DNA from: a virus
Taxonomy: Duplodnaviria > Caudoviricetes
Virus record (IMG/VR): IMGVR_UViG_3300013121_000023
Location: 113,133 to 177,132 of that record
Reading direction: 5' to 3' (one strand)
DNA length: 64,000 bases
The notes under the pieces were generated by a model. That model had not been told where the DNA came from, did no database searches, and saw nothing but the letters and a program-made list of their open reading frames with translations. A program made the translations under genes and the position numbers. Below are positions 7,514 to 54,080 of the stretch, in pieces (positions within the stretch are counted from its first letter, which is position 1; every line of letters begins with the position of its first letter).

Positions 7514-8644
7514 ATGGGTTCTTTTGATTTCACCTGTGCTATTTCACGTATGCCGATTAGCTATGAGCAGCGAGCTATCTTGCTACTATTGGCAGGTAAT
7601 GAGAGTGTCAGTAACAAAGGTTGTTCACCTAATGACTGGTGGTTCCCTTGGTCATTTCCAGTGTGTGCTACGTATAAAGATTATGGCAGGTTTGTACCTG
7701 TGTCGTGCCATGACGTATGGGAGAAAGTTCTACAGAAATATGTTGTGGTGAAGGAAGTAGGAGAAAACGAGTATCACGATGTACCCACACACAGGAATAT
7801 GAAATTCGAAGATATAATAGAAGCATGTCTAGAAGATAGACTGGAAATAACAGATAATGCAGGCGTAGTTTACCAAAACGCGCTTGAACTAAACGATGAA
7901 GCCAGTACGTATATACCAACAGTAAATAAAATACGTCGCATCATAAGTGGTATAATGAAAAAAGACGCAAATGATTTCTTGATAAGAAGGATAGGTAGAG
8001 GCGTTATTAACGTAAGCACCCGCATAGGCTCAACCATAAAAGCTAATAAGTTCTTTTCCGCTATGTGTAAATTCATAAACAGTAGAGCGACCTTCACATC
8101 TATAGTGACACCTGGTAAATACGAAGTCACTCTAACTATTTACGCAAAGCCTGGTAACTTTCATATGAATCCCGACGAGTCTATGGCTGGTGAACCACCG
8201 ACCAAAATGCCAATGGCTTTCATGGCTATAAGAGGCGATGTTTGGGATTATCTGAGTTCTACTAACTATACTGGTTTGACGAAAAAGAAAATACAGGCAG
8301 ACATAACACGACTGAGAAAGTTCGTGGATTCGTATAAGAACGAGCCGGAAAGTATGAGATACCACCTGTGTAAACTTGATATGTCAATTGAGTCACGCAT
8401 ATTTATAGATGGTGTTCTTGGACCTATGAGGTGTGATAGGTCACCGCATCTGTTGGTGGGCAGTAGCGAGAAAGAAGAGTTCTGGCGACTGGTACGTGCT
8501 TTCGCTACGGCTATGCCGGCTATACACAGACTCAGACACATGCTCGTGCCGTCCACGTCAGTTGGGTGGCAGGTGGATTATGGGGAGGCGCACGTTCGCG
8601 CCTATAAAGCGTTTGCTCAGATGGCTGGAAAAGGGAACAAATTA
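7514..8644 (+). CDS. Hypothetical protein
   Basis: GGAGGT RBS; ends TTA TGA with TTATG overlap. Confidence 0.75.
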
Positions 8645-9213
8645 TGACCATGAGCGAAGATAATCTTTCGTGGATGTATGATGCTTGTAAAGAATATCTT
8701 TCAGTATTGAGGGACGAAGAGATAAATACACTCATATACATTACAGCTCCAAATAGGATGGTGACTGTAACAAAGGAAGCCATCAGTGAAAACAGGTTTC
8801 CGTCCATCGCGTCTATGCATAAACTGGGGCTACTGTATTTTAACGATTACGATAAGACCAGATATGAGGTGTGCACCACTCACGCTGGCTATCTACTGAC
8901 TACGTTTTTGGGAAAAACAGTTCCTTACATAGTTGAGACAGCGCGTGTAGGGCCCGATAAGATTCACATAGATGATGAGGTTAATCGAGGTTATATGCGC
9001 ATAATTTATAAAGCAGACATGTCAGATATGCTGTGCAAGTTCTTTGTGCTTTGGAAGGATATGTACGATAGAGACGTGTTTATCTCCATGATCAAGAACA
9101 ATAATGGTAATGAAGAAAAACCGTGTTCCATATTCGTATATTCCGCAGACGAGACAAAACTGAATGAGTACGTAATCGCCAAAATAAATGCATTTACTAG
9201 AGAGGTTAAATAA
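8644..9213 (+). CDS. Hypothetical protein
   Basis: Coupled ORF; weak similarity to 9716..10261. Confidence 0.65.
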   Translation: MTMSEDNLSWMYDACKEYLSVLRDEEINTLIYITAPNRMVTVTKEAISENRFPSIASMHKLGLLYFNDYDKTRYEVCTTHAGYLLTTFLGKTVPYIVETARVGPDKIHIDDEVNRGYMRIIYKADMSDMLCKFFVLWKDMYDRDVFISMIKNNNGNEEKPCSIFVYSADETKLNEYVIAKINAFTREVK

Positions 9214-9704
9214 TGAATCGTAGGTATATATACGTTACCGGTAGTCACGGTAACAAAGATGTGGATAGCGTAGTAATGGCACTACGCAAGGCAAACCATC
9301 GTGTGTACAGTCCGTGTGCGCGTAACAAGTCTATGGGCTTGAGGAACAAGGTTGCTACAGCACCTGGCAACGTATACGTGGACTGTTTGCAGTTGGAAGC
9401 CGACTTCGGCTTTAAGCGTGACGTTGGGGCGCTGCTAGCGGCTACGCTATTTGTACTAGTACTACCATCATGCCCTAATAGTGATGTAGACCTAGGTATG
9501 GCCGTTGGACTCAGAAAGCCGGCGTGCGTATACGTTCCACCAGAAGCTAAAAAGCTACGTATGGTGGAGTCGTATCTATCTGTTAACAAGTTCTCGTCTA
9601 ATATAGACGAGGTAGTTACGTGGTCCACTAACATATCGTTGTTGTTCCCCGATAGTGTTTTGAGCCCCAATGCGCTCATGGACTCGTTGAGCTGCTACGA
9701 ATAA
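9213..9704 (+). CDS. Nucleoside 2-deoxyribosyltransferase-like protein
   Basis: IYVTGS..LR..NH.VYSP..D..AL....LFVLVLP...S.VDLGMAVGL.KP pattern. Confidence 0.6.
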   Translation: MNRRYIYVTGSHGNKDVDSVVMALRKANHRVYSPCARNKSMGLRNKVATAPGNVYVDCLQLEADFGFKRDVGALLAATLFVLVLPSCPNSDVDLGMAVGLRKPACVYVPPEAKKLRMVESYLSVNKFSSNIDEVVTWSTNISLLFPDSVLSPNALMDSLSCYE

Positions 9705-9715
9705 GGAGAGCACGT

Positions 9716-10261: not shown

Positions 10262-10274
10262 GAAAGATTGTTTG

Positions 10275-10347
10275 TAGGACGCCCGGGACTTGAACCCGGA
10301 ACCTGCGGATTAAAAGTCCGCTGCTCTACCTATTGAGCTAGCGACCC
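10275..10347 (-). tRNA. tRNA-Lys(UUU)
   Basis: Cloverleaf; anticodon arm GCGGA CT TTT AA TCCGC. Confidence 0.9.
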
Positions 10348-10358
10348 GAAGGAGAACC

Positions 10359-10655
10359 ATGACAACAGCAGCGCGCATGAGGGATTTGGTGGGCGAATAT
10401 ACCAAAAAAGTCATTAGTGAAAATGAGGAACATATAAATGAAAACTTGCTACCGATATTCCTTAAAGACTTGTATTCTTGCATAGAATCAGCTGCATCTA
10501 AGGGACAGCGCACATACCAACATGCTATAAATCTTACAACCTTGAAGGTGCTGCATTTGGTTGTTCCACAATTGAGAGATCGAGGTTATTTGGTAGAGTA
10601 TATTACTAGTAGTACTACACAGCATCTTATGTACATGAACGTATCTTGGTCATTA
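10359..10655 (+). CDS. Hypothetical protein
   Basis: AAGGAG RBS; TTA at 10653 (standard end 10667). Confidence 0.65.
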
Positions 10656-10660
10656 CTTGG

Positions 10661-10696
10661 TAGCTAAAAAAGAAGAGAGCGAAAGCTCTCTTCTTT
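10661..10696 (-). terminator. Terminator between convergent genes, with TTTAGCTA tail
   Basis: aaagaagagagc-gaaa-gctctcttcttt next to TAGCTAAAAA. Confidence 0.8.
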
Positions 10697-11073
10697 AAAT
10701 ACTTGAATCTATGCGCCTCAATGTATGAGGCCATTACCTCTGCAATGTAGTCGGGGGCAATTCCCCGAAGTGCATTGCGACTGAGCACTTTTGCGGTACC
10801 CTTCCCCCACGGTACCTTCACTGCCTCAATATATGGTTTGCCCTCCCCTTCTGGATGGCGCATTGTTAGCAAGTGTCTCGCTGCCTGCATCAGCAGGGAG
10901 CTTACCTCCTTCGGCTCCTCCAGCCAAAGGATGTGGATTACTGGGTGGTTCAGCACCACCCTCAATTGCTTTATGGTTTCTTCATTTGCAATATCAGTGT
11001 ACCTAGTGCCCTCATGTACGAATGTCCTAATGTCCAACAGGGCCTTCCGAAGGCCCTCTATGTTTTCGTACAT
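10696..11073 (-). CDS. Hypothetical protein
   Basis: AGGAGG RBS; TTA at 10696-10698 directly before the terminator (standard end 10627). Confidence 0.7.
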
Positions 11074-11186
11074 AGTACCTCCTTTCATATATCTTATGCC
11101 ATTTTTACGAATAAATTAAGGTACACATAAGTAATAATCGAGGGGCTAAAGAAATGGAAGGATAGCTCCATCTCTAATAAGTGTTG

Positions 11187-11258
11187 TGCCCCAGAGAGGA
11201 ATCGAACCTCCTTTAGCCTCCTTGTAAGGGAGGTGCCGGACCAGCTGGCTCCTGGGGC
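11187..11258 (-). tRNA. tRNA-Val(UAC), atypical D arm
   Basis: CCTCC CT TAC AA GGAGG; T loop TTCGATT. Confidence 0.8.
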
Positions 11259-11263
11259 AACTG

Positions 11264-11554
11264 TAACTTAGATATATCCAAAGAAAGGGAAATCAGCATA
11301 CCAATGAATTGGTCTCTTCCTTTTTCTACTTCTGTTATGAATTCCGAAACCAATTTGGTTTCGGTCGTGCCATTTGACTCTATTGTCATGTTCATGTTAT
11401 GAAAACATGACGATGCTGAATCTGGCCATATTGTGTGTGATACTTTATTAAACCGTTTGTGGAATAGATGCCACGCATCTCTAAAGCAGTCTGTTACATA
11501 GACCATAACCACCAGTTCTTTTCTTTCTGTGTCCTTTATGAAGTAAACGTTCAT
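11264..11554 (-). CDS. Hypothetical protein in tRNA cluster
   Basis: TTA at 11264-11266 ends it before tRNA-Val; standard end 11213 lies inside the tRNA. Confidence 0.65.
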
Positions 11555-11590
11555 TCTTCATTCCTTTCATTTTTACTCATATAGTAACAG

Positions 11591-11664
11591 TGGGACCACT
11601 CGGATTCGAACCGAGAACATCCCGGTTATGAGCCGGGGGCTCTGACCGATTGAGCTATAGTCCC
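11591..11664 (-). tRNA. tRNA-CAU, probably Ile2 (lysidine type)
   Basis: CCCGG CT CAT AA CCGGG; Ile2-like GGCTCATAACC. Confidence 0.85.
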
Positions 11665-11743
11665 AAACAAGCCGTTTTTAAATAAACGGCAAGGATTTAT
11701 TGCATGACGTGGCCTCAGCCCGCCTTATCTATGCAATACATCG

Positions 11744-11815
11744 AGCCCACTATGGGATTTGAACCCATGACCTACGGTTTACAAAACCGTTGCTCTACCA
11801 CTGAGCTATGTGGGC
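11744..11815 (-). tRNA. tRNA-Thr(UGU)
   Basis: ACGGT TT TGT AA ACCGT. Confidence 0.9.
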
Positions 11816-11818
11816 AGG

Positions 11819-11928
11819 AGCGACAGGCCCGAGTCGAACGGGCGACCAACGGAAAACCGCTGCTCTACGGGGCCATCACCAGACAGAACGTTACTTGTCT
11901 GGCTTGTGACCTACTGAGCTACTGTCGC
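11819..11928 (-). ncRNA. tRNA-like RNA with expanded D loop and truncated anticodon arm
   Basis: Acceptor GCGACAG/CTGTCGC, D stem GCTC/GAGC around about 50 nt, arm GCGG-TTTT-CCGT, normal T arm. Confidence 0.75.
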
Positions 11929-11951
11929 AAAAAAGGCTTATATAGCCTTTG

Positions 11952-12023
11952 TGGATCGTCTAGGAATTGAACCTAGGCACAGCGCTTATAAGACGCCGCA
12001 GGGCAACCAGCCCGTCACGATCC
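11952..12023 (-). tRNA. tRNA-Ile(UAU)
   Basis: GGCGT CT TAT AA GCGCT; acceptor GGATCGT/ACGATCC. Confidence 0.75.
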
Positions 12024-12102
12024 ATAAGAGGTACACCGGAGACCCGATGAAGCCTTCCGCCAGCATGGTAGGAAGAAGGAGTGTCACCACGATGTACCTC
12101 GG

Positions 12103-12174
12103 CATCCCTGACAGGATTTGAACCTGTGACCCGGAGATTAGAAATCTCCTGCTCTTCCGCTGAGCTACAGGGAC
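12103..12174 (-). tRNA. tRNA-Arg(UCU)
   Basis: GGAGA TT TCT AA TCTCC. Confidence 0.9.
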
Positions 12175-12412
12175 ATCTACGCCTTCACTCATATTTCTTA
12201 TTGCGCTATTTATTTGATTTTTTCTTACGGTAGCTAAAAATAGATAGGGTTTGCTGATATAGGAGTAAGTTGGCCCGCCGTCATGATCGCCGTTATACCG
12301 GATGGAGTCTGGAGTACAGCTACTATCAACCGGGCCGAGAAGATAGATTTACAACGAACTGGTGTGGTTCGTATGACTAACGGTCTTTCGGGGCGCCTCA
12401 TCAAGACCGCTG

Positions 12413-12491
12413 TGCTCTTGGCAGGAGTCGAACCTGCAAATAATAAAGCCGCTTTTGAAACGGCCGCGTCTGCCTATTTCGCCACAAGAGC
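12413..12491 (-). tRNA. tRNA-Leu(CAA)
   Basis: GCCGT TT CAA AA GCGGC; Leu-type D arm. Confidence 0.85.
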
Positions 12492-12550
12492 TTTGGCCGT
12501 CACCCCCCACACCAACTACTAGAGCTGTGTGGGGGGGGGGTTTCGTAGGT

Positions 12551-12649
12551 AGACCCCGAGTTAGAAAGCCGTTCTGCATCTTCAGTATTCGGCGAAGAAA
12601 AAGAGAGTTGCACTCTTTTCGGGCGTGTATGGCTTTCTTGGTGGGGTCT
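12551..12649 (-). ncRNA. Structured RNA A (sibling of 12739..12884)
   Basis: Terminal stem AGACCCC/GGGGTCT plus an inner stem. Confidence 0.55.
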
Positions 12650-12652
12650 TGG

Positions 12653-12734
12653 AAAGCGAAGAGGAATTGAACCTCTTATCTCCATTTCGGTAGTTGGCCT
12701 AGATGGATGGTTTTTGCCTTTAACCTACGCTTCA
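12653..12734 (-). ncRNA. tRNA-like RNA with 17-nt anticodon loop
   Basis: D, T and acceptor arms present; TCCAT-[CTAGGCCAACTACCGAA]-ATGGA. Confidence 0.6.
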
Positions 12735-12738
12735 TAAT

Positions 12739-12884
12739 GAGACCCGAGTTACTGCACCATTGTCCTTGTTAGGACTGGTTTTGGTTACCAGTTGCCGACC
12801 ACCGGCACCTACCCCTTATACGGGGTAGCTAGGATTCGAACCTAGTTTTTGGGGTTGCGTGTAGGATGCAGTTGTTTGGGTCTC
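12739..12884 (-). ncRNA. Structured RNA B with circularly permuted tRNA module
   Basis: T arm, loop-closed acceptor stem, D arm and anticodon-like arm inside paired ends. Confidence 0.65.
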
Positions 12885-12886
12885 GG

Positions 12887-12968
12887 TGCTGAGAGAGGGA
12901 CTCGAACCCTCACGGTTTTACCCGCCGGTACCTAAAACCGGGGCGTCTACCTATTCCGCCACCTCAGC
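12887..12968 (-). tRNA. tRNA-Leu(UAG)
   Basis: CCGGT TT TAG GT ACCGG; long variable arm. Confidence 0.9.
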
Positions 12969-13042
12969 AAGAAAGGGTGTAAGTAACGTGTGTAGGGACG
13001 AACGGCGAAGAACATCCAAGTACTCACGTTAAGCACACCCTG

Positions 13043-13121
13043 TGGGGTAGATAGGGATCGCACCTATCAGCTCTGGGCAGCGGTTTTACAGACCGCCTGA
13101 AGCACTAGCTTCGTCTACCCC
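13043..13121 (-). tRNA. tRNA-Tyr(GUA), atypical
   Basis: GCGGT CT GTA AA ACCGC; T loop TGCGATC. Confidence 0.75.
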
Positions 13122-13710: not shown

Positions 13711-13714
13711 AGTA

Positions 13715-14810: not shown

Positions 14811-15455
14811 TTACACCTGCGTAAAGACGAAGATGACATCAAACGCTCCCTGAGTCGTATTTGTCACGAACTTCAGGTGGATACCCTGACCGGCCCTTAT
14901 GGTAATCGGCTTCTGTACAGGGTCTCTCTTAGCTCTAGCTGGCAAGAAGTTGGCGATGGCCTGCTGCGCACCTTCTTGGTCTAGTGTACCAGGGCCCCAC
15001 TCATCAGTAGATATCCTGATGATATCTAGAGGCTGGGCTTCTTCTGTGCCGCCCAATGTAGCACCGGTATGCATCACAATACCTGCGCCAAGAGAATCAT
15101 CCGTATCATGTGCTCTAGGCGTAACAGCCGTACCACCAGTAGGGGCGACTGTATGTGACCACCGTACCAAGTTGAACTGTCCCGCAACGCCTGTAACCGC
15201 CGTAGTTTGGGAATTTCTCAGGTAGTACTCTCGTAGCTTCACTACCTTTGTAGAACCTACGGGATTATACAGAGACAGCATTGACTTGTTGAGAGTCAGA
15301 GCTGCGCCAACGGCGATACTGGTAAACGTAGCTTCTTCCGTAGGGGCCTGTGTAACAGCAAACCTGTACACACCATTATCTAGGATGATGTTTACAGGGT
15401 TGCCGCTGGGATCGCGTACTACGACATCTCCCTCTATTACTGAGAAGGCGCCCAT
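14811..15455 (-). CDS. Putative virion protein
   Basis: T/G/A-rich; structural cluster. Confidence 0.6.
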   Translation of the reverse strand: MGAFSVIEGDVVVRDPSGNPVNIILDNGVYRFAVTQAPTEEATFTSIAVGAALTLNKSMLSLYNPVGSTKVVKLREYYLRNSQTTAVTGVAGQFNLVRWSHTVAPTGGTAVTPRAHDTDDSLGAGIVMHTGATLGGTEEAQPLDIIRISTDEWGPGTLDQEGAQQAIANFLPARAKRDPVQKPITIRAGQGIHLKFVTNTTQGAFDVIFVFTQV

Positions 15456-18106: not shown

Positions 18107-18244
18107 TAACTCTTGCAGCAGATAGCCGCCGTCTTCTTGAACTAGGTCGTCTGTATTTTCACACAGAATATGTCCGCCCTCATCATCTTCATCTCGTACT
18201 TGGTACGGGCGGGCATGTAGGTGGGAATTCGTATGTATCGGCAT
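18107..18244 (-). CDS. 45-aa virion-like peptide, not in the ORF track
   Basis: MPIHT...HILCENTDDLVQEDGGYLLQE; starts in TTATG and ends at TTA. Confidence 0.6.
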
Positions 18245-20820
18245 AACCAGTCATCCTTCTTTTGGGGCGCGCTCCAACCATCGCCTTCTACAGACTCTTC
18301 TAGCTTAGATACCTGTTTGCGCAATCTACGCAACTTAGATATATCGGAGTCTTCTTTCCATTTCTTAGCTGCATCCAACTGAGACAGGGCCATCCTGCTT
18401 ATGTCTCTATCCCATACTGCGTTCGATACTGATTTGCCCAACAAACCAGCTATCTGTGTACCTGCCAATAGAGTTGCTAGTCCCCTAGTTTTTGGATTTT
18501 CAAATCCTCTTACGTAGGCTGGTACGGTCATCAGGGCTGATAGGCCGGCTTTTGGAGCGTTCTCTCTCAGATCTTCCACTGTTTGCCCTAGAAGGGATCT
18601 TCTAGCTACCTCTTCAAGAGCGTTTGCTTTAGCCGGGCTTTTATTAGCCTCAACCGCCAGATTTTTTATTAGACTAGGTGCGTAGCTCTCCGCCATAAGA
18701 CCACCTAGAGCACCAGCACCAGCACCAGCTAGTAGGCTAGTAGCGGTTGGTACAAATAGAGACGATCTTACGGTTCGTTCATCGACGTTTCTGTTGAGAA
18801 GATTGGGTAGCAGCGCACCGCTAAACATCCCCACTACTGGGTTTATAGCGCTAAAACCAACACGACCGGCACTGGCTAGTTGTAGGCGCAGTTTATTTGC
18901 CGCCAATTCGTTCTTACCCTCATCTGTCATCTTAAAGTTGGCGCTACCGGCTGTCTTTAGGAAACCTATAGACTTTTTGAAATCGTCCATAGGAACTGAA
19001 TCTATACGGCCTATTATGGTGTCTTTGTAGGCAGGACTACTGTGAGCTAGAAACATCTTCCTGGCTTCTCCCTCAGAGTTAAATCCTAGCATTACTTTGT
19101 TTTCGTCGAACTTGCCGTTCAACATTTGCTTTATGATGAATGCTTTATCAGCATTTTTGTTCGGGCCTAGATATACGTCTGTCTCCTCTCCGTCTTTGTC
19201 TTTCGTGCCAGGTATAAAGCCGTAGTCTGTCTTGTACTTTCTGGTCCAGGCAGGCAGACCGTTCTTACCGTCAAACTTCTGTAGGAATCCCTTTGGTCTA
19301 TCTACATGGACAGGAATTCCTTGAAATTCAGTTTTCTTGTGTACCTTGTCTGACGCTGTTTTCTCGTGCTGCGGAAGAAGATCTCTGAATTGCTTTATCA
19401 GGTCTTCTTTCTTTTGCGACATATCTGACAAGTACTCGTCAACTGCCTTATCAGGAGTTCTCTTTAGCCACTTTTCATTGAACCTGGTTATCAAACCTTT
19501 TGGCCGAACACCTAGGTAGTGCTCGATCAACACTTTTCTTTCTTCTGGGGGAAGATCTGCGTGGCTGCCGTATCTGGCCGCTCTACCTTCTAGTTGCTTC
19601 AGCTTTTCTCTGTTCCAGTGTGGGTCTAGTATCTGTACCAACCTGGTACCTTTCAGGTCCAACCCCTCACCGCCAGCAGATGACACCAACAGTGCTCGCA
19701 GCTTACCCTCGTTGTAATCACGCACCATTTGGTCTCGTTTACTGTGCGCTATATCACCCGTAAACTCACCGAAAGGTACACCAGCTTCTTGTAGCTTTGC
19801 TTTGTACGGGTTTATGCCCGATTCCAGCCAGTTCGAGTAAACCAGAGCCTTCGCCCTAGGGTTTTCATCGATCATTTTCTTTAGTGTTTCGAAGGCTTTG
19901 TCTATCTTAGGCTGGTGTATGACAGCATCTTCCTTGGAAAGCCCCGCTGTGGTGTTCACAGCTTGTCTGGCCGAACCAAGAAAGTTGTTCATCATGGCAG
20001 ACTCCTGCTTGCTGGGAGGCAGGCCTCTTTTGACCTTTGCGGCCACCCATGGGGGCGCTTGACCCATGAGGGTGTCATATAGCTTCAGCTGGTCAGGAGT
20101 AAGTTCTACCTGTACCTGCTTGGTCTCCACATCGGGAAAGTTGTCTTTTGTCCCCGGATGGTAGTCAACCCATTTACTGAACTTCTGTTTCAGTTCTGGT
20201 GCTTTTCTGTCGTAAAGAACCTGAATCGTTCCAGGCGTAGCTTGGTTTATATGCTTGTCCCAAAAAGACGGCTTCACTACCTTTTCAGTTATGTACGCAG
20301 ATTCGAAGTCTTTTCTGTCGTGCGGCAGTATCTTTGCATTAGCGGCAAGGTTTATGAGTGGAGCTATATCAGCTGGATGATTGTAGAAAGGGCTACCAGT
20401 AAGCAGAAGTCTCTTATCCGCCTGTGCCCCCAAGTTTTTTATTGCTCGAAAGGTAGCGCTACCTATGTCCCTAGCTCTGTGCGCTTCGTCCACAATCATA
20501 AGTGGGTTTTCTTCTGTGGTTCCTTTCGCAGCTAGATTCTGAATGCTCTCTATATGAGCCGGCTGCTTATGCCCCTTCAGATGCTTGGCCCTCTCTTTAG
20601 CGTAGTTGTCCCTAAGCGCGGCTGGAACAACAACGGTGCTAGGTACCCCCAGAGCATCTTGTGCAGCTATGCTTGAAAGAGTCTTACCGCTACCCAGACC
20701 ATGAACAACCAACAACCCAGGTTGGTCTTCTTTCTGAATGCGATCTACTACACGTTGTTGATGAGGCAACAACGGTGTTTTTACCTCAGCTATCTTTAGC
20801 AAATCGTCGAGTAGTCCCAT
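18244..20820 (-). CDS. SNF2-type helicase fused to pyrophosphatase-like and hydrophobic domains
   Basis: HGLGSGKT, DEAH, LLTGSP, GEGLDL, EGRAARYG; DYGFIPGT.DKDGEETDV...DENKVMLGF; standard end 18142. Confidence 0.85.
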
Positions 20821-22262: not shown

Positions 22263-22281
22263 CTTTTTAGCGTTTCGTTAG

Positions 22282-22353
22282 CGCGGGTAACGGGACTTGA
22301 ACCCGTACATAAGGATTTAGAATCCTATGCTCTACCAGTTGAGCTATACCCAC
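22282..22353 (-). tRNA. tRNA with CUA anticodon (amber suppressor type)
   Basis: GTGGGTA/TACCCGC-G73; TAGGA TT CTA AA TCCTT; canonical D and T arms. Confidence 0.85.
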
Positions 22354-44386: not shown

Positions 44387-44870
44387 TGTCGTCTTCTCCA
44401 GTGAAAATGTCCCACAACTCTTCGTTTGAGTTCATAGCTACTGCGCAATCGAAACAAACGAAGGTCGCATTGTTCTCATCGATTTTTATGACCGGTGAGA
44501 TTGGGGCCGCATTTTCTTTGTATATAGGGCTCTTTTTTGGGGCCGTTATTTTTGCTTCTGCCGCTCTTATGCATTGCACTTGATAAGCAATAAATCTACA
44601 GCAGCGTGAACATACGCACGCTGGATCTGACGTTTCTCCCTCTTCTACTGCTACAGGTACGTCAGATACACTGTTGAACAACTCCCCCCAACAGTGCTCA
44701 TGCATTATTAGAGGATCTTCCTCCTCTATTATGAAATTTGGTAGATTGTGCATCCTTTCGAAAAATCCAATATTCAGCACTACTACCAACTCTTTGCATT
44801 TGAAGGAATCGCCGCATGTGCAAGCGAATTCTTCTTCTAGTATTGCATTAATAATTTCGTCAACGTCCAT
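44340..44870 (-). CDS. Acidic Zn-binding protein
   Basis: CxC, HxxC, CxxC; poly-Asp tail. Confidence 0.6.
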   Translation of the reverse strand: MDVDEIINAILEEEFACTCGDSFKCKELVVVLNIGFFERMHNLPNFIIEEEDPLIMHEHCWGELFNSVSDVPVAVEEGETSDPACVCSRCCRFIAYQVQCIRAAEAKITAPKKSPIYKENAAPISPVIKIDENNATFVCFDCAVAMNSNEELWDIFTGEDDNDDVDDDDDDDDKWP

Positions 44871-45382
44871 TTAACCTTTACAGTTTCTACTGATATCCAT
44901 CTTCTCATTATCCTTTCATACTCTGTACTGTGTTCAAACAAGAACAATCTTTCCAAATAATCTCCACCATCAAAATGTATACGTCTTTCTATTTCCGTGT
45001 ATAGTGCAATATCAAATCCAATGTCTTCGATCTCTCTGACATAGAGATCGTCTTGAAGGTCAATCTGGTCCATGGTGAACCCAACGTACTGCCTACTATC
45101 AACGTTTACGTAAGGCTCGTCTAGCCACGGACATTCATCACCACTATCATACATACCTATTAGATGTTCAAAATCCCTTTGATTTATAAATGTGGAGAAC
45201 CCACGGTTATCCACAAGTCTTACTCTCAGACCGTATCTATTGGTGGGGTAAAAGAATCCACTAACTGACCAGTGTCTGTTTTTTACTACGGGATCTTTGA
45301 CTTGATACCCGATCAAGCCAAAAGTGTCTGGTAGCATCAGTGATACTACCGGTCTTGGTATTGTCCATGGGTTAGTAATCAT
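44852..45382 (-). CDS. Hypothetical protein
   Basis: Start MITNPW; ends TTA TTA (standard end 44837). Confidence 0.6.
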
Positions 45383-45664
45383 TAGTAACCAAGATTTATC
45401 CTTCTTACTATGTGGGCATTTGCTGCCCAAACGATTCCAAGTGCAAATGACTTTATAAATAGCCAAATCATTCGTCCTCCTTATCATCATCCTCGGTCTT
45501 TCTTTCTGGGTTGTATATTTCTTCTATTAGTTGTTCAAACATTGCACATGTGTTTGCACATGTGTTTGACTCGTTCGACTCGTCTGTTTCTTCTGGTTCT
45601 CTCATCTTGTTTCTTATGCCAGTTAGAGCTATGCTTTTACGGCCTATATACTGGAATCGAGAAC

Positions 45665-48600
45665 ATGGCTCATCTAAACCCGCAAGAGGCTCACGAGTAT
45701 TTTCAGGGTAGGGTTATCGAAGCGCTTAAATCCGGCTTTCCAATAACCGGTAAGTACTACGACCTCCACCTTGAGAATGTCCAAGCCAAGGACAACTTGG
45801 GCGTAGATGACATCCACGAACAACACCGCGCAAGAGTGGCCGGTGAAACGTGGTCTGTACCAGTGCACGGTACAGTCGTCATCAAGGACAAAAACGGTAA
45901 AACGCTGTCGTCGTCCAACATGAAGTTGGTAGATGTACCTAAGATGACAGCTCGCCACTCCTATATAGTCGGGGGTCAGGAGTACCAGCTAGACAACCAA
46001 TGGCAACTAAAGCCCGGTGTTTATGTTCGTCGCGATAGAAAAGACAACATAGAGGCTCAAATAAATGCCATAGGTAGGGGCGGCGGATTTGGTATAAATT
46101 TCGATACTACGTCCAAGGTATTCAACCTTGAGTATAACAAGGCAAACATACCTATTTACCCCATCATGAAAGCTCTGGGAGCTAATGATGCGTATCTAGA
46201 GAGTATTTGGGGTAAAGACGTTTTTGAAGCCAATGCGAAAGCTAAAAACGTCAGTAACTCTCTTGCTAGGTTTTACAAGACCACGACCAACAAAGAGCCG
46301 GCATCTGTAGAGGAAGCCGCTCAACACGTTCGTACATTCTTGGGAAATCTGAAAGTACGACCAGAAGTTACGAAAATAACTCTAGGAAAAGAGTTCAGCG
46401 GAATAAACGGTGATTTGCTACAAAGCGCCACCGAGAAGATGCTGAAGGTACAAGCGGGACACCCCGAAGATGATCGAGACTCTTTGGTCTTCAAAGATCT
46501 TAGATCTGGTGGTGACTACGCGCACGACCAACTGGTGTCTGCCCTTAGAACTATAAAGACAAAAGTTCAGCGTAAGTTGAACTCCATGCAGCAGCCAGAT
46601 GTATATGGCTCCTTTCACCACGATTATTTCAATAAGCCTATTAAAGGCATATTTGAATCGTCTGTAGGTAGGCTGGCGTCACAGATAAACCCAGTAGAAA
46701 TGCTATCGTCGTCGTTTCAAACGACTATACTTGGTCCTGGTGGCATATCGTCTGTGGAGCGTATAAATGATGAGGCTAAACTCATCAACCCATCACACTT
46801 TGGTCTACTGGACCCAATTGTTACTCCAGAGGGAGACAAGACAGGTATTACCCTCAGACTACCGATGGGCGTTAAGAAAGAAGGACGTACTCCGGTAGTA
46901 CGTATGTACAACCTAAAGACTGGCGTCACAGAATTGGTACCGCCAGAGAAGCTGCTTAATTCAAAGGTTGTATATCCAGACCAAATAAAGTGGGAACAGT
47001 CCGGCGGTAAGATGGTACCTAAAGCCATTACTGCCGAAGTAAAAATGATGGGCGAAGGTAATAAGCTGGTAGTCGGCAATATGAAGGATGCCGACTACGC
47101 TATGTTGCATCCGTCTCAATTGTTTAATCCGGTAACCAATCTAGTTCCATTTATTGGTAACGTTGCTGCAAACAGAGTAGCTATGGCTGCCAGGCACATG
47201 GAGCAATCTGTGTCTTTGCTGCATAGGAAGGCTCCTCTTGTTCAGGTCTCTACAGGTGCCAATGTAGAAGGCGCAAAAACGTTTGAAGAATTGATTGGTG
47301 GAAAGTCAGCGCACAAATCACCAGTATCTGGCACGGTTCATAGCGTGTCTGACACCGATATCATCGTAAAAGACGATAAAGGTAAGCATCACTCAATACA
47401 GCTATACAAGAACTTCCCTCTAAACGACGCTAAGTCGATGCTTACGTCCATCCCAATAGTGAAGAAGGGCGACAGCATAAAGGCGGGTCAGGTAGTAGCT
47501 GACACTAACTTCACGGATAAGGGCGAGATAGCACTAGGTACGCAATTGAACGTGGCGTACATGCCCTATCGCGGGCTTAACTTCGAAGACGGCCTTGTCA
47601 TCAGTGAGAGGGCGCGAGATCTACTGACTTCAGTACACCTTCACAAACCATCCATCACTCTAGACCAGAAGATGGATACCAACCCAAAGCACTTCATTAC
47701 TAGGCTTCCACTGGCGTTCAAGAAAGACCAGTTGAAGAACATAGGTGATGATGGTGTCATCAGAGTTGGTTCGGTTGTAAAGCCAGGAGACCCTCTAGTA
47801 CTAGCCTCAAAGCCGTTCGAACTGAAGGATAGGATCGGTTTGGCCGCCATTCAAAAGAGTATGTCGGCTACGCACAATGACCGGTCTCTTAGGTGGGAAA
47901 GCGAGTTTGACGGCAAGGTAGTAGACGTACATAAGAACAATGACGGTACCATATCTGTGCATGTGGCTACAAACGAGCACATGACAGTGGGCGACAAGCT
48001 GTCCAATAGATATGGTGGTAAGGGTATTGTTGTTTCGATTTTGCCAAACGACAAGATGCCTAGGACCAAAGATGGTCGTATAGCTGACGTTCTGTTTAAT
48101 CCTACCGGTGTAGGTGGTAGGCAGAATCTGGGGCAGATATATGAAACAGCTATTGGCAAGGTTGTCGAAAAAACAGGTAAGAAGTACATAGTTGATAATT
48201 TTGCGCATGGAGTAGATTTCAGGGAAAAGCTAGAAAAAGAGCTAAAAGCGCACGGCGTAAAAGACAAAGAAGAAATGATAGACCCTGAGACAGGTAAGTC
48301 TTTGGGTGAGGTTCTTATTGGACCTCAACACATGCTTAAGCTGGTTCACCAGATTGAAAAGAAGACAGCCGTAAGGTCTGGCATGTCTTTGCCAGGTCTG
48401 CCCAGTGCAGAGGGATATAACTCTAATCTACAACCCAGTGGCGGCGGTCATCATGGTGGGCAATCACCTGGAGCCTTGGGTATCTACGCACTTTTGGCTC
48501 ACGGAGCTGTTCACAATATCCGTGAGATGCAGACATGGAAGAGCGAAGGTATAGACCCGGAGACAAATCCAGAGAAGAGATGGAAAGACGGTCAACACGC

Positions 48601-51600
48601 TAGGGTATGGGCTGCCATACAAACTGGCTCCCCACTACCCACACCAACGCCTACCTTTGCGTTTAAAAAGTTCACAGACATGCTCAAGGGGGCTGGTGTG
48701 AACATAGAGAAGAAGGGTCACGACCTGATTCTTTCCCCGCTTACAGACACGCAAATACTTCGTATGGCTGGAGGCTCAGCAGGTGAGCTAAAGAAGCCGC
48801 ATTTGGGTGTTACGGAGAGGAAGATAGAAGGTCTGCATGAACCAACACCAGAACATGGCGGCATATTTGATCCAAGGGTTACCGGTGGTCTGGGCGGTAA
48901 TAAGTGGAGCTACATAAAGCTAGCCGAACCGGTACCAAACCCTCTGTTTGAAGACCCCATACGTTACATAACTGGTCTCAAGACGGATGTGTTTAGGGAT
49001 TTGGTAGAAGGAAAGAAAGCCGTAGTACCAGGCACAAAAAATTTTGTGGATGTAGGTACGGCAGGCTCCATTACTGGAGGACCGGCGATAAAAAGCATTC
49101 TAGAGAAGATTGATGTAGATGCAGAGCTTAGGAGCGCGTCAGCAGCACTTAAGACAGCTCCATCATCTGGCGTAGACGCTTTGATGAAAAAGGTAAAGCA
49201 TCTTAGAGCGCTTAAAGATATGGGTATGAAGCCAGCAGAAGCTTATGTGCTGAGCTACATGCCAGTCATGCCGCCTTCAGTCAGACCATTGTCTGTGCTG
49301 CCTACAACTGGCGATATAAAGTTTGACGATATCAACGGTCTGTACAAAACCTTTGGTACGATCAATTCAAAGTTGGAACAAAGCATAAAGGCTGGTCAAA
49401 CTACCGATAAGATGAAATCAGCTCTTAGAGCTGATGTGTACGACGGTATGAAGGCCATCATGGGGTACGGCGTACCCTATGGGGATGCTAAGTACAAAGG
49501 CATACTGCACATCATAGCTGGCAGTTCACCGAAGGAAGGGTTCTTCCAGAAAGGTCTTGTGCAGAGAAAGCAAGACCTTTCTATGAGAACAACAATCATA
49601 CCTGAGCCAAGCCTTGGACTAGATGAGGTTGGTCTTCCAAAGAAGAGCGCCTTGAAATTGTTTACTCCTTTTGTTGTCAGGGAGCTTCACAGAACCGGTG
49701 CTGCAAAAGATGTAGCAGATGCACAAAAGTTGATAGCGAAGACCATTCAGGGAGAAGACAATAAGTCTGTGTGGTCGGCTCTGGACAGGGCCATGGAAAG
49801 CAGACCTGTGTTGCTTAAGCGAGACCCAGCTCTGCATAAGTACTCTTTCCAAGCGTTTAAGCCAAAAGCTGTGGAGGGAGCTGCTATCCGAATACACCCT
49901 CTGGTTACGGGTGGCTTCAACGCAGACTTTGACGGCGATAGCATGTCTGCCTTTGTTCCTGTATCCCCTGAAGCTGTGCAAGAGGCTCATAAGTTGATGC
50001 CCTCCAATAACTTGTTTATGGAGAGCAGTGGCAAGATAGCCTATGTGCCTACACTGGAATCGCAGCTAGGTTTGTACAAGATGACCCTTCGTGGCAAAGA
50101 CACGAAGCACCATTTCAGCAAACCAGAAGATGCTATACATGCTCTAGAAAAGGGGTCTGTAGATATAACAGACGTGGTGCATATTGACGGGAAGCCAAGT
50201 ACGCCAGGCAGAGCGCTGTTGTCGCACGTACTCCCAGATAATATGAAAACGTCTATGCTACACAGCATAGATACACCATTGGATAAGAAGGGCCTCACTG
50301 CTCTTCTTACTTCTTTGGGTAAGCACGACAGTAGGTCTTTCGGTGGCGTGGTTAACCAGATCAAAGATTTTGGTAACCACATGGCTACCGGAATAATACG
50401 GTCTCCTATAACTGGAAACCCGTTTAGCGTAAAAGCTCACTCTTTGGGGCTGGAAGACCTTAAGGCTGATAAAGAAACCAGGGCTAAAGTAGTTTCTGAT
50501 ACAGAAGCTAAGCTCAAGGTTCAGCTAAGCAATCCTAATCTAACCCCTATACAAAGAGAGAAGATAACAGTAGATGCTTGGGCTTCTGCTACCCCTATGT
50601 TGGATAAGATGCACGCCGCTAAAGAATCCTCAAAGGATTCTAATCTGTTCGTTATGAGACAGGCCGGTATAAAACCAGACGCTACTCAGTACAGACAGAT
50701 AATGATAGCTCCTATGCTCTATAGGGACTCTAAAGGAAACGTCGTACCTACGCCGGTACTAAGATCGTTTTCAGAGGGTCTAGACATGCCTGGGTACTGG
50801 ACTAGCCTGTATGGCGCTAGGAGTGGTGCCGTACAGAAGGTTCAAGAGGTTCAGGAACCGGGGTATATGACCAAGCTACTCCAAAATACGGCTATGAATC
50901 AAGTCGTGGATAAGCACGATTGTGGTACAAAACACGGTATATCGATGGGCGTGTTCGACCATGATGTACAAGACAGAGTATTGGTCCATGCACACGGTGA
51001 TTACCCAGCCGGTACAATCATAACGCAGTCTGTTTTGGACAACATAAGATCCAAGGACAAAAATGCTAAATTGGTAGTTAGGTCTCCACTTAAGTGCGAG
51101 TCTAATCAGGGTATATGTCAGAAGTGCGCCGGTTTGTCTTCTCACGGGAACTTCTATGACATAGGCACCAACATAGGTATTTTGTCTGCGCACGCAGTTG
51201 GCGAGAGAGCCGTCCAGTTGACACTAAAGAGCTTTCACACTGGCGGCGCTGCTACTGGCGGAAGCAAGACTCTGAGTGCTTTTGGTAAGTTTCAGCAGCT
51301 CATGAATCTAAACGATGAGATACCTGACCAAGCCACAATTGCTATGAGAGATGGCAAAGTGGAGAAGATCGAGAAGGACGCAACTGGTGTAAAGGTCTAT
51401 ATAAATGGTCACGCACACCATATATCAAAAGACCGGCACGGTTTCTCTCTTCACGAACCAGTATCTCACCTAGTAGGTACGACTGGGTACGAACACTGGA
51501 AAGCTCCTAAAGTTGGTGAATACTTCAAGGCTGGGGAGCCGCTAAGCGATCCCAACAGAACTACGGTCAACCCGCACGACCTGTACAAAGCGACGAAGAA

Positions 51601-52075
51601 CCTAGATATAGTTCAAAATCATCTTACAAGAGAGGTTTTTGACCTATACAAGGATGAAGGCATACGCCGAAGGAACGTAGAGGTTCTAGTAAAGGCTATG
51701 GGTGGTGCGACAGAAATAAAGCACCCAGGCGACCATGACTTCGCCCTTAGAGGCGACATAGTTTCGCTCAATAAAGTTCGTGAGTGGAACAAAGAGCTAG
51801 AGTCCAAAGGCTTGCAGCCCATAAGTCATGAGCCTGTACTAAAAGGTGTAAATGTACTACCGTTCCATCTACATGAGGATTGGATGGCCAAGCTACAGCA
51901 CCAACACCTGAGAGATACGATAGCCGAGGCAGCTGCTAAGGGTGGTGTGGCACACATACACGGCACACACCCAATACCAGGTGTTGCTTATGGTGCCGAG
52001 TTCGGTCTAAATATGCGAGACTCCGGTAAGCCAGGGATGACTCATCTTCATGATGTGCCAGGTCACCACTACTGA
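45665..52075 (+). CDS. DNA-directed RNA polymerase, fused beta-beta'
   Basis: HFG.LDP..TPEG, NFEDG..ISE, GDKLSNRYGGKG, KL.H (beta); LLKRDP.LH, FNADFDGD, GAR.G, GY..K.L, RSPL.C, GE...QLTLKSFHTGG (beta'). Confidence 0.95.
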   Translation: MAHLNPQEAHEYFQGRVIEALKSGFPITGKYYDLHLENVQAKDNLGVDDIHEQHRARVAGETWSVPVHGTVVIKDKNGKTLSSSNMKLVDVPKMTARHSYIVGGQEYQLDNQWQLKPGVYVRRDRKDNIEAQINAIGRGGGFGINFDTTSKVFNLEYNKANIPIYPIMKALGANDAYLESIWGKDVFEANAKAKNVSNSLARFYKTTTNKEPASVEEAAQHVRTFLGNLKVRPEVTKITLGKEFSGINGDLLQSATEKMLKVQAGHPEDDRDSLVFKDLRSGGDYAHDQLVSALRTIKTKVQRKLNSMQQPDVYGSFHHDYFNKPIKGIFESSVGRLASQINPVEMLSSSFQTTILGPGGISSVERINDEAKLINPSHFGLLDPIVTPEGDKTGITLRLPMGVKKEGRTPVVRMYNLKTGVTELVPPEKLLNSKVVYPDQIKWEQSGGKMVPKAITAEVKMMGEGNKLVVGNMKDADYAMLHPSQLFNPVTNLVPFIGNVAANRVAMAARHMEQSVSLLHRKAPLVQVSTGANVEGAKTFEELIGGKSAHKSPVSGTVHSVSDTDIIVKDDKGKHHSIQLYKNFPLNDAKSMLTSIPIVKKGDSIKAGQVVADTNFTDKGEIALGTQLNVAYMPYRGLNFEDGLVISERARDLLTSVHLHKPSITLDQKMDTNPKHFITRLPLAFKKDQLKNIGDDGVIRVGSVVKPGDPLVLASKPFELKDRIGLAAIQKSMSATHNDRSLRWESEFDGKVVDVHKNNDGTISVHVATNEHMTVGDKLSNRYGGKGIVVSILPNDKMPRTKDGRIADVLFNPTGVGGRQNLGQIYETAIGKVVEKTGKKYIVDNFAHGVDFREKLEKELKAHGVKDKEEMIDPETGKSLGEVLIGPQHMLKLVHQIEKKTAVRSGMSLPGLPSAEGYNSNLQPSGGGHHGGQSPGALGIYALLAHGAVHNIREMQTWKSEGIDPETNPEKRWKDGQHARVWAAIQTGSPLPTPTPTFAFKKFTDMLKGAGVNIEKKGHDLILSPLTDTQILRMAGGSAGELKKPHLGVTERKIEGLHEPTPEHGGIFDPRVTGGLGGNKWSYIKLAEPVPNPLFEDPIRYITGLKTDVFRDLVEGKKAVVPGTKNFVDVGTAGSITGGPAIKSILEKIDVDAELRSASAALKTAPSSGVDALMKKVKHLRALKDMGMKPAEAYVLSYMPVMPPSVRPLSVLPTTGDIKFDDINGLYKTFGTINSKLEQSIKAGQTTDKMKSALRADVYDGMKAIMGYGVPYGDAKYKGILHIIAGSSPKEGFFQKGLVQRKQDLSMRTTIIPEPSLGLDEVGLPKKSALKLFTPFVVRELHRTGAAKDVADAQKLIAKTIQGEDNKSVWSALDRAMESRPVLLKRDPALHKYSFQAFKPKAVEGAAIRIHPLVTGGFNADFDGDSMSAFVPVSPEAVQEAHKLMPSNNLFMESSGKIAYVPTLESQLGLYKMTLRGKDTKHHFSKPEDAIHALEKGSVDITDVVHIDGKPSTPGRALLSHVLPDNMKTSMLHSIDTPLDKKGLTALLTSLGKHDSRSFGGVVNQIKDFGNHMATGIIRSPITGNPFSVKAHSLGLEDLKADKETRAKVVSDTEAKLKVQLSNPNLTPIQREKITVDAWASATPMLDKMHAAKESSKDSNLFVMRQAGIKPDATQYRQIMIAPMLYRDSKGNVVPTPVLRSFSEGLDMPGYWTSLYGARSGAVQKVQEVQEPGYMTKLLQNTAMNQVVDKHDCGTKHGISMGVFDHDVQDRVLVHAHGDYPAGTIITQSVLDNIRSKDKNAKLVVRSPLKCESNQGICQKCAGLSSHGNFYDIGTNIGILSAHAVGERAVQLTLKSFHTGGAATGGSKTLSAFGKFQQLMNLNDEIPDQATIAMRDGKVEKIEKDATGVKVYINGHAHHISKDRHGFSLHEPVSHLVGTTGYEHWKAPKVGEYFKAGEPLSDPNRTTVNPHDLYKATKNLDIVQNHLTREVFDLYKDEGIRRRNVEVLVKAMGGATEIKHPGDHDFALRGDIVSLNKVREWNKELESKGLQPISHEPVLKGVNVLPFHLHEDWMAKLQHQHLRDTIAEAAAKGGVAHIHGTHPIPGVAYGAEFGLNMRDSGKPGMTHLHDVPGHHY

Positions 52076-53310
52076 TGCCACACCCAATAAGAAACACGAT
52101 GCACGAATCTGCTGGTACGGGAGCTACCCGTACCATGCAGTGCCGTGTCATGGACATCAACCTGAAGAATTGGACGGTTGATGTAGTTACCGTATTTGAT
52201 CAGAAGTACTACAAAGGACTTCAGATAAGTTCTGGTTACCTTCACTGGCACAAAGGCGAAGGTTTCTACGCCATACCCGAAGTAGGCGCCCTGTGTCACA
52301 TAACGGTGCCAGGTGACTCTGCACCGCCCTTTGTTGGAGACTTCGTAGCACCGCTGGAAATAAGAACTGATGGTGCAGCCCCAGGACAAGAAGAAGATAC
52401 TAGGTCTCGCGGGTCAACTACCCCGTATGTCTCTGATGCATCTTTTGCAGCAGGCAGAAAGCTTGGTAAACCAGGCGACATACTTATGGTTGGCAGGGAC
52501 GGGCAGTTCGTAATTCTTCACAGAGGCGGCGTCCTACAGATAGGAAGTACATCTCTATCTCAACGTGTTTACATACCTATATCTAATAGAATTGTAGACA
52601 TAGCCGAAAACTACGAGCTTAAAAGCATAGCCGGGACTATGAGTTGGCAGATTCTAGATGAACAGAGTGAAGACCAAACGCCTGCCGAATTCTGCCAAAC
52701 ATTCAGGTTGTACGCTCAAGATAAATACGCAGATATACGTGTGAAGACAGGTAAGGTAACAGCTCCTATTGCTGAACAAGATGGTTCTGAAACTCTCGGA
52801 CACATAAAAGAACTAGACATGGGTCAAGATGACGGACCCATAGTCCATGAGGTTGTTATCGCTCCCGGTGGATTTAATTCTGACGGTAGCGCCGCTTCTT
52901 CTGACACCAAAAACCTAACTGTTCTTAAGTATTTTTTCGATCGCAAGGGTAACTTCTTTTTTAGAACAGAAAAGAATGTGTATGTGTTTGTTAGAGGTAG
53001 AACACATGCTGTATTCAAGGGCCCTGTTTTGTTGGAAGGCGAAGAAGATCTAAGACTCAACTTTAAAAAGGGTGTCGCTTTCATCGGTCCTGACGGTGTG
53101 GCCATAGAAGGAAAAGTTGTAAGCGTAAACAAGGGTAATGCTCCTGTTGCTAGAATGGGAGACCCTGTGACGCTAGCTCCAGGGATAATACCTGTGTCTG
53201 GCACGATCACTCCCCCAGGTGGTCCACCAGCTGCCTTTATTGGCACGCTGACTATAACTACACCACTATTGGGTGCCATCATAGGTGGTAATCCAGGCTT
53301 TAGGGCGTTA
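52075..53310 (+). CDS. Baseplate hub/spike (gpV/gp5-like) protein
   Basis: G.Y.IPEVG OB-fold pattern; VARMGD C-terminus; TTATG overlap (standard end 53328). Confidence 0.65.
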
Positions 53311-54080
53311 TGGCTGTCTATTATGTAGGTAGCTATAGTCTGGGCACTATAAACGCAGCCCTGTCCACAGAAGTAATACCGCTACTTCTGCAAATAGAGC
53401 CGCTTCTTCTAGATGTGTTCGCCGCTCTTGATGAGCTGCTAATTACGTTTGATTTGCTTATTAACGCGGAGTTTGGTCTTGGTGGACTTAAGCTGAGCCT
53501 CAGTCTACAGCTAGATGCTGCCATATCTGCCGCTGCCAACATAAGCTTGGCCATAGGCAATCCTATACTGTATTTCCAAGGCGTACTCAGTGCCATGCTT
53601 TCTGCTGTGGCTGCCTTGGAAGCGCAAATAGAGGCAGCCCTTTCTGCTGGCATAGGAATACCTCCTATATCTGCCAGTGCCAGTGCTCAATTGAGCGCAT
53701 CTATAAGCCTTGCAGCCAGCATAAAGGCTCAGCTGCTTGGGATACAGTTGCTTATAGACCTAGCTCTTGAGGCAAAGATACCGGCACTGGAGGTAAAGGC
53801 TCAGCTAGAGCTGATCATACCTACGCTACAGCTATTGATAGGTAACCTACAGGCCAACCTAAACGTAACTGGCGGTATACACCTATATCGTCTTGATGGA
53901 CCTGCTATCACCGTAGCAGCCGAGCTTCAGGCAGCTTTTGCAGCAAATCTTGGTATCAACGGAAGCGTGAATATAAAATGTTTGCTGGTGGTCGTGGATG
54001 TAACTGCAAATGCTACGGCCTTTAACAATCTTTCCGCTATTCTGAAGGTGGACGACACCTCAGAAGTAGTGTTCCCGTGA
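53310..54080 (+). CDS. Hydrophobic helical putative virion protein
   Basis: Leu/Ala-rich; follows the spike gene. Confidence 0.6.
   Translation: MAVYYVGSYSLGTINAALSTEVIPLLLQIEPLLLDVFAALDELLITFDLLINAEFGLGGLKLSLSLQLDAAISAAANISLAIGNPILYFQGVLSAMLSAVAALEAQIEAALSAGIGIPPISASASAQLSASISLAASIKAQLLGIQLLIDLALEAKIPALEVKAQLELIIPTLQLLIGNLQANLNVTGGIHLYRLDGPAITVAAELQAAFAANLGINGSVNIKCLLVVVDVTANATAFNNLSAILKVDDTSEVVFP

Follow-up and report, generated by a model that had tools for sequence, protein, structure and literature searches.

A recurrent arrangement of neighbouring genes on an uncultured tailed phage raises the question of whether UUA, a leucine codon of the standard code, can serve as a stop codon in a bacterial virus. 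The window analysed here is the whole 64,000-nt stretch; it spans bases 113,133-177,132 of one virus record with a length of 177,132 bp (IMGVR_UViG_3300013121_000023), and positions refer to this window. At several of its gene junctions the pentanucleotide TTATG is found, in which an in-frame TTA of the upstream gene shares its A with the ATG of the next. The initial annotation had listed six such overlaps, at 8642 and 53308 on the plus strand and at 15455, 17626, 18244 and 33184 on the minus strand (the minus-strand positions being those of the shared A, the first base of the ATG), and had read them as termination and reinitiation at UUA rather than as simple codon avoidance. All six were confirmed directly, with TTA lying in the frame of the upstream open reading frame (ORF) at each, and the TAATG at 9211 and the TGATG at 52073, offered as canonical counterparts, do have the same geometry. 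As judged from the sequence, UUA very probably does not encode leucine in this phage and acts as a fourth stop signal, TTATG being the UUA version of the 1-nt overlaps TAATG and TGATG.

The virus record possesses direct terminal repeats and is rated complete. The genome has a G+C content of 46%, carries ten tRNA genes, and encodes a family-A DNA polymerase, a DnaB helicase, a primase, a UvsX-like recombinase, SNF2 helicases and a contractile tail.

TTA is missing from gene interiors

Codons were counted in the cores of ORFs encoding 150 aa or more and compared with frames 2 and 3 and with the expectation from base composition. Within the window, TTA occurs in frame only twice among 12,299 core codons, where about 152 are expected and where frames 2 and 3 contain 216 and 95. 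Genome-wide it occurs nine times among 33,145 core codons, against an expectation of about 410 and counts of 594 and 287 off frame, and the next rarest sense codon is found 53 times. UCA and UUG stay ordinary sense codons, with 375 and 612 occurrences in the core. Inspection of the nine core TTAs placed none of them within a credible gene body: all correspond to gene boundaries, precede a true start, or lie in doubtful ORFs. Six either have a Shine-Dalgarno motif and an in-frame ATG a few codons downstream, as at three boundaries (sheath/tube, the sigma-factor gene and the 18249 ORF), or are located 5' of the true start of a giant ORF; the remaining three belong to doubtful ORFs. Leucine encoded by TTA at conserved positions, which the standard code leads one to expect, is not observed in this phage.

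Such an absence could in principle reflect a leucine codon that is merely avoided, as phages commonly avoid rare codons; under the standard code genes would then run on to the next TAA, TAG or TGA with long out-of-phase overlaps, and the TTATG junctions would be coincidental. Avoidance, however, predicts that in-frame TTA is missing everywhere and not that it is concentrated 5-fold in the last 50 codons: 86% of in-frame TTAs fall in the last 50 codons of standard ORFs, compared with 17% when all codons are pooled and no more than 27% for any single codon besides TTA.

The giant ORF, listed at 45410-52075 (+) with 2221 aa, has three in-frame TTAs near its 5' end. It probably begins at the ATG near 45665, which gives about 2136 aa, and with this start its apparent overlap with the divergent gene 44852-45382 is removed. 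Outside the window, an 807-codon standard ORF (G000:C1:72404-74827; L008:1404-3827) with a sigma-70 region-3 match at its C-terminal end has an in-frame TTA at codon 541, with AGGAGG and ATG coming next; rather than being part of a fusion, the sigma factor is most likely encoded by its own gene (about 256 aa).

Coding constraint ends at TTA

When TTA is read as a stop, 224 genes are obtained, of which 78 end with TGA, 66 with TTA (about 30%), 54 with TAA and 26 with TAG, and the number of 1-nt overlaps rises from 4 to 19. The TTA gene ends are evenly distributed along the genome and are found in early and late genes alike. Simple avoidance is insufficient because TTA sits at these 66 gene ends, and four independent tests (codon score, the sheath/tube pair, orthologue ends and micro-diversity) show that coding constraint ends at TTA.

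By codon log-odds, the sequence scores +0.30 bits per codon up to TTA and -0.02 beyond it, compared with +0.31 and -0.08 for the canonical control. The tail sheath of the phage ends ...NYIRVTLLI-TTA, and the sheaths of two related phages, G001 and G002, end ...NYIRLTLVV/I-TGA at exactly the same place; read with translation table 11, sheath and tube form one 1315-aa protein, and they are separate genes in both relatives. More generally, the C-termini of orthologues in G001 and G002 have a median offset of 0 from TTA and lie within 5 residues of it in 28 out of 33 cases, and the corresponding figures for canonical stops (within +/-5 residues) are 35/49 for TGA, 14/17 for TAA and 7/8 for TAG. 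For tails of at least 9 codons the orthologue end is offset by -10 to +5 from TTA, and by -16 to -279 from the standard stop.

Micro-diversity was assessed with L113, an independent 17.4-kb assembly of the same phage (Logan SRR26835457) that is 99.87% identical. Single-nucleotide polymorphisms (SNPs) in gene bodies are synonymous in 14 cases and non-synonymous in 4, versus 1 and 4 in the tail frame, and the tails (about 423 nt in total) hold 5 SNPs where 0.45 are expected, an 11-fold higher density. L113 keeps every TTA that it covers, as do two shorter independent contigs, L114 and L115 (SRR15603312). The same phage is thus present, at 99.5-99.9% identity, in at least two other public runs, in which the gene calls on all three contigs carry mis-extended table-11 proteins, such as DnaB, called at 489 aa where a stop at TTA gives 479.

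The upstream genes end at TTA and not at the next canonical stop, since the coding signal is lost there, orthologue C-termini coincide with it, SNPs in the tails are relaxed, and the DnaB-primase junction, described below, reads TGATG in relatives. That public gene calls, for instance those on L113, give the long forms, and that some tails comprise just a few codons, would suit an unaltered code, yet the tails have no coding signal and a relaxed SNP pattern, orthologues stop at TTA, sheath and tube would have to be fused, and the enrichment of overlaps reported in the next section is specific to TTA. We regard the standard code as a very improbable explanation.

The agreement among independent assemblies also excludes an assembly artefact. 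A sequencing or assembly error, for example a systematic miscall of TAA as TTA, was considered only because the two triplets differ by one base, and no support for it was found. The three independent assemblies come from different runs and agree at the TTAs that they cover, TAA and TTA are both abundant off-frame, and an error model does not explain the absent sense TTA, so that error is scarcely conceivable as the source of the pattern.

The next stop is met after a median of 7-9 codons downstream of TTA and of 8-12 codons downstream of canonical stops. As these distances are about equal, there is no indication of selection for backup stops nor any sign of TAG readthrough.

TTATG junctions are specifically enriched

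TTATG junctions number 8 in the window (Table 1) and 18 in the genome, and in 15 of the 18 no start codon precedes the overlapping ATG in its open frame. They account for 18 of the 66 TTA ends (27%), whereas TG follows 9.5% of all TTA trimers (binomial p = 3e-5). One-nucleotide overlaps are found at only 5 of the 131 TAA and TGA ends (4%; Fisher p = 4e-6 versus TTA). TGA ends mostly take the 4-nt ATGA form (35/78), for which no TTA equivalent exists.

The initial annotation had proposed beforehand that all junctions be tabulated for each NNA codon. In-frame NNA codons followed by TG were therefore collected, and the ATG was counted if no earlier ATG occurred in its frame and that frame stayed open for 60 codons or more. 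TTA gave 16 out of 148 (108 per 1000), TAA 27 and TGA 21 per 1000, and the other thirteen sense NNA codons 0-6.6 per 1000 (together 43/15,158; Fisher p = 2e-19 versus TTA). An equal enrichment of other sense codons ending in A, which would have spoken against a special role of UUA, was not found.

Table 1. Stop-start overlaps, other TTA gene ends and the leucine tRNA gene discussed in the text (window coordinates).
Position	Strand	Feature	Upstream gene	Downstream gene	Remarks
8642-8646	+	TTATG	TTA 8642-8644 ends gene about 7448-8644	ATG 8644 starts 189-aa gene 8644-9213
53308-53312	+	TTATG	TTA 53308-53310 ends gene 52075-53310 (411 aa)	ATG 53310 starts 256-aa gene 53310-54080
15457-15453	-	TTATG	TTA 15457-15455 ends gene about 16000-15455	ATG 15455 starts 214-aa gene 15455-14811	GGAG 5 nt upstream
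17628-17624	-	TTATG	TTA 17628-17626 ends gene 18102-17626	ATG 17626 starts 136-aa gene 17626-17216	AGGAG upstream
18246-18242	-	TTATG	TTA 18246-18244 ends SNF2-helicase/InPase gene about 20820-18244 (858 aa)		33 codons before standard TAG
33186-33182	-	TTATG	TTA 33186-33184 ends DnaB 34623-33184 (479 aa)	ATG 33184 starts primase 33184-32150 (344 aa)
57976-57972	-	TTATG	TTA 57976-57974 ends gene 58429-57974	ATG 57974 starts gene 57974-57564	absent from the initial annotation
59222-59218	-	TTATG	TTA 59222-59220 ends gene 59705-59220	ATG 59220 starts gene 59220-58426	absent from the initial annotation
9211-9215	+	TAATG			canonical 1-nt stop-start overlap; comparator
52073-52077	+	TGATG	end of giant ORF		canonical 1-nt stop-start overlap; comparator
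18109-18107	-	TTA end	45-codon ORF		5 nt before ATG 18102 of next gene
23660-23658	-	TTA end, not TTATG	413-aa gene		47 codons before standard stop
1088, 10653, 10696, 11264, 13219, 27239, 28650, 30979, 35111, 42112, 44852, 56293		TTA ends, not TTATG			12 other ends of this type; 13 in the window in total
12412-12491	-	tRNA-Leu(CAA)			C34

The junction between DnaB and primase is the most telling of the eight. It reads TGATG in both G001 and G002 and TTATG in the phage, a one-base difference within a conserved overlap, and the predicted primase start matches exactly. This TTATG is conserved in L113, where a SNP at 33179 is synonymous in the primase and non-synonymous in the DnaB tail frame. 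At the plus-strand junction beginning at 53308, the standard-code ORF of the upstream gene would extend for 5 codons to a TAG at 53328; the G002 orthologue ends exactly at TTA, and the junction at 53310 corresponds to an ATGA overlap in G002. The junction 17628-17624 (-) is kept in the independent assembly L114, and at 59220-58426 (-) an earlier in-frame ATG at 59238 offers an alternative start.

The ORF that starts with the ATG at 18244 (-) is acidic and has only 45 codons (18244-18107). Its codon score is +0.20 bits per codon, versus -0.23 for the helicase tail frame and +0.38 +/- 0.13 for real genes; judged on these figures it is plausibly a gene. The helicase upstream of it (18244-20820, -), of the SNF2 type, carries a fused InPase (PF18823) domain; elsewhere this domain is known from large phage proteins of the virion, DarB-like and polyvalent kinds.

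tRNA genes and release factors

The phage has no tRNA with anticodon UAA among its ten tRNAs, and its UUR box is served by tRNA-Leu(CAA) only. With C34 this tRNA reads UUG only, and therefore UUA is left unread by the phage tRNAs. It is also the only phage tRNA of a split or four-codon box without U34; U34 tRNAs reading NNA codons are present for Lys, Val, Thr, Ile, Arg and Leu(CUN).

Nine of the tRNA genes form a cluster at 10274-13121 (-) comprising Lys-UUU, Val-UAC, Met-CAU, Thr-UGU, Ile-UAU, Arg-UCU, Leu-CAA, Leu-UAG and Tyr-GUA. Six of them read NNA codons preferred by the phage (ATA, CTA, GTA, AGA, AAA and ACA), which suggests a GC-rich host that decodes these NNA codons poorly. G001 and G002 carry only 1-3 tRNAs. 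Apart from tRNAs, the search for RNA families in the cluster returned no relevant family, only a sub-threshold YrlA (Y RNA-like) match at 11757-11866 (-), which overlaps the tRNA-Thr gene (28.7 bits versus a gathering score of 69).

The tenth tRNA, at 22281-22353 (-), is a well-formed 73-nt molecule of the amber-suppressor type, with anticodon CUA and a normal 7-nt loop (67.5 bits versus the Rfam tRNA family). It raised the question of TAG recoding, which was rejected, because reading past TAG adds no more codons than reading past other stops and orthologues terminate there. TAG, TGA and TAA all still act as stops in this phage.

How UUA could end a gene

We infer that the peptide is released at UUA and that ribosomes reinitiate at the overlapping AUG. 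Of what the initial annotation proposed, termination at UUA in place of simple avoidance is borne out by the 66 gene ends, the orthologue ends and the non-coding tails. In the mechanism that we propose, the upstream gene would end on UUA and the AUG sharing its A would open the next gene, an arrangement that would allow translational coupling. The releasing agent is probably a host protein of the RF2 type, a class-I release factor whose relaxed reading of the second base, of the kind proposed for organellar RF2 proteins substituted at Ser204, would let it accept U-[A/G/U]-A. The phage, with tRNA-Leu(CAA) in place of tRNA-Leu(UAA), would keep competing tRNA away from UUA. A possible route to this state would start with the disappearance of UUA from a GC-rich host and its phages, followed by capture of the vacant codon by the RF2-type factor.

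Several points count against this proposal. We know of no bacterial or phage release factor that reads UUA, and the phage itself encodes no RF-1, PCRF or Pth (peptidyl-tRNA hydrolase) domain. A number of tails downstream of TTA are only 0-5 codons long and cannot separate a stop at TTA from one at the next canonical codon. The site at 8642 reads TTATGA, with a TGA (8645-8647) directly after the TTA, and is equally a canonical ATGA overlap, which makes it uninformative. Orthologues were on hand for only some of the TTATG pairs, the other pairs lacking orthologues on both sides or being non-overlapping in relatives. A clear Shine-Dalgarno motif is present at only about half of the TTATG starts, and the amber-suppressor-like tRNA has no explained role where TAG is an ordinary stop.

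The main rival holds that UUA is an unassigned, "hungry" codon: no tRNA would read it, ribosomes would stall, and the peptide would be freed by rescue or drop-off, a situation that the phage would tolerate or exploit at gene ends. It explains the absence of TTA from gene interiors equally well, and it agrees with a phage that has neither tRNA-Leu(UAA) nor a release factor and whose tRNA set suggests poor decoding of NNA codons by the host. Hosts can indeed lose expression of tRNA-Leu(UAA), as in Synechococcus WH5701 (PMC11726456), and UUA is a regulated rare codon in Streptomyces (PMC10732093). It is nevertheless difficult to reconcile stalling and rescue with TTA at the end of 30% of the genes, essential and highly expressed ones among them. 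The tail sheath, DnaB and the recombinase all end on TTA, exactly where their orthologues do. Ribosomes that stalled without release would be sequestered, and rescue by transfer-messenger RNA would tag these essential proteins for degradation. Near-cognate readthrough would yield sheath-tube fusions, and canonical backup stops are not enriched after TTA. TTATG is built into the fine structure of the operons, and efficient termination is therefore favoured over a tolerated stall. In organelles, moreover, the same reassignment accompanies altered release factors (PMC12574857). Taken together, a stalled and rescued ribosome appears to be an unlikely account of these gene ends.

A different use of a hungry UUA would be a +1 shift that brings UAA or UAG into the A site, canonical termination then following. 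Ribosomes are well known to shift frame at hungry codons, an A or G after UUA yields UAA or UAG in the +1 frame, and the -1 shift proposed for AGA/AGG in human mitochondria is an analogue. The next base, however, is A or G at only 21 of the 66 TTA ends and is most commonly T (35/66), TTATG gives UAU in the shifted frame, and a conserved motif or slippery context was looked for around the TTA stops and none was found. This route we consider hardly credible, and direct reading of UUA by a release factor stays the preferred explanation.

Relatives, host and possible origin of the proposed code change

No close relative was found among GenBank phages, either by megablast with 5.7 kb of the phage, which gave no match, or by tblastn of its PolA, for which the best identity was at most 31%. 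The closest PolA relative is P0002 (56% identity), and the phages most closely related to this one are uncultured, measure 170-195 kb and have 54-65% G+C. The exclusion of TTA is not common to this clade: all relatives fetched (54-65% G+C) use TTA as leucine or almost never use it. When the TTA codons of G002 were aligned with the phage proteins, 39 out of 75 faced leucine and most of the others valine or isoleucine, and at leucine positions facing a TTA of the relatives the phage uses other codons. As the relatives keep the standard meaning, the change of UUA is specific to the lineage of this phage or to its host.

Two related phage contigs with 63-64% G+C, L033 (CALFEQ010000137.1) and L034 (JAKPDW010000029.1), whose PolA proteins are 44-52% identical, were binned inside metagenome-assembled genomes of Myxococcales and Deltaproteobacteria. 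This binning gives a weak hint at the host range of the phage family, and it concerns the relatives and not the phage of the window. In relatives of the phage (sequences L003 and L005), a dGTP diphosphohydrolase-like domain (PF18909; L005:17528-17953), a dCMP deaminase and a nucleotide kinase adjoin the replication genes, a set that hints at modified DNA bases in the phage family.

The wider proposition is that UUA has become a stop read by a release factor in an uncultured bacterial lineage and its phages, having arisen by codon disappearance in a GC-rich host and subsequent capture by an RF2-type factor, and that it would be the first sense-to-stop change outside organelles. We consider the case for this full scenario evenly balanced.

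If correct, a fourth stop codon in a phage, and by implication in its bacterial host, would extend sense-to-stop change to viruses and free-living cells, and would open the question of how release factors acquire the reading of UUA to study in a tractable system of bacterial type. A phage with 46% G+C, UUA for 30% of its stops and UUAUG junctions for termination and reinitiation built upon it would make such a code visible. There are also practical consequences, as table-11 gene callers mis-extend about 30% of the phage proteins, fuse sheath with tube and create false long overlaps. Codetta, which is used for large screens of genetic codes, cannot detect sense-to-stop changes (PMC9825746), and because screens of this type are blind to them, such genomes go unnoticed in databases. 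The case further touches on phage-host conflict, where loss of tRNA-Leu(UAA) is a route to phage resistance (PMC11726456).

Comparison with known systems

Descriptions of sense-to-stop reassignment are confined to mitochondria and, since 2025, plastids (PMC12574857), and our full-text literature searches found UUA or other sense-to-stop codes only in these organelles and none in bacteria or phages. UUA is a stop in labyrinthulean/Thraustochytrium mitochondria (NCBI table 23), with a Ser204 substitution in mtRF2a; UUA and UCA are stops in peDinoflagellate plastids, with a Ser204 substitution in pRF2; and UUA and UUG are stops in the mitochondria of Marsupiomonadales and Pseudoscourfieldia, with an altered mtRF1a (PMC12574857). 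The phage resembles these organelles in that the same codon has passed from leucine to stop, is absent from gene bodies, is present where homologues have their stops, and has relatives in which the standard meaning persists. Translation is of the bacterial type in both, so that a relaxed RF2-type factor would be a ready mechanism. In contrast, the code here belongs to a tailed phage of 177 kb and, by implication, to the bacterium that it infects, UCA and UUG are kept as sense codons, and TTA ends 30% of the genes at 46% G+C, compared with the 54-65% of its relatives.

The canonical overlaps ATGA, TAATG and TGATG occur, with translational coupling, in the operons of bacteria and phages. TTATG shares with them the use of the stop's A as the A of the next ATG, its location between neighbours on the same strand and a frequency far above chance, and the TTATG between DnaB and primase is positionally homologous to the TGATG of relatives. 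It differs in that the terminating triplet is a sense codon in the standard code, and in being found at 27% of TTA ends, versus 4% for TAATG and TGATG at theirs.

Recoding of stop codons is a familiar feature of phages, in which TAG is reassigned to Gln or TGA to Trp with the help of suppressor tRNAs and release factors encoded by the phage. As in those genomes, the code departs from table 11, standard gene callers misannotate the genes, and the tRNA repertoire of the phage is involved; here, however, the change runs in the opposite direction, from sense to stop, and affects early and late genes alike.

Finally, loss of tRNA-Leu(UAA) makes Synechococcus WH5701 resistant to cyanophage Syn9 (PMC11726456), and in Streptomyces (bldA/UUA) tRNA-Leu(UAA) is regulated (PMC10732093). 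Both cases demonstrate that a host may decode UUA poorly or not at all, with selection on the TTA usage of phages as a result, and they offer a route by which UUA could initially have been lost from the phage. UUA nevertheless still means leucine in these bacteria, where its lack of decoding blocks or pauses translation, whereas in the phage described here TTA is a regular gene end.

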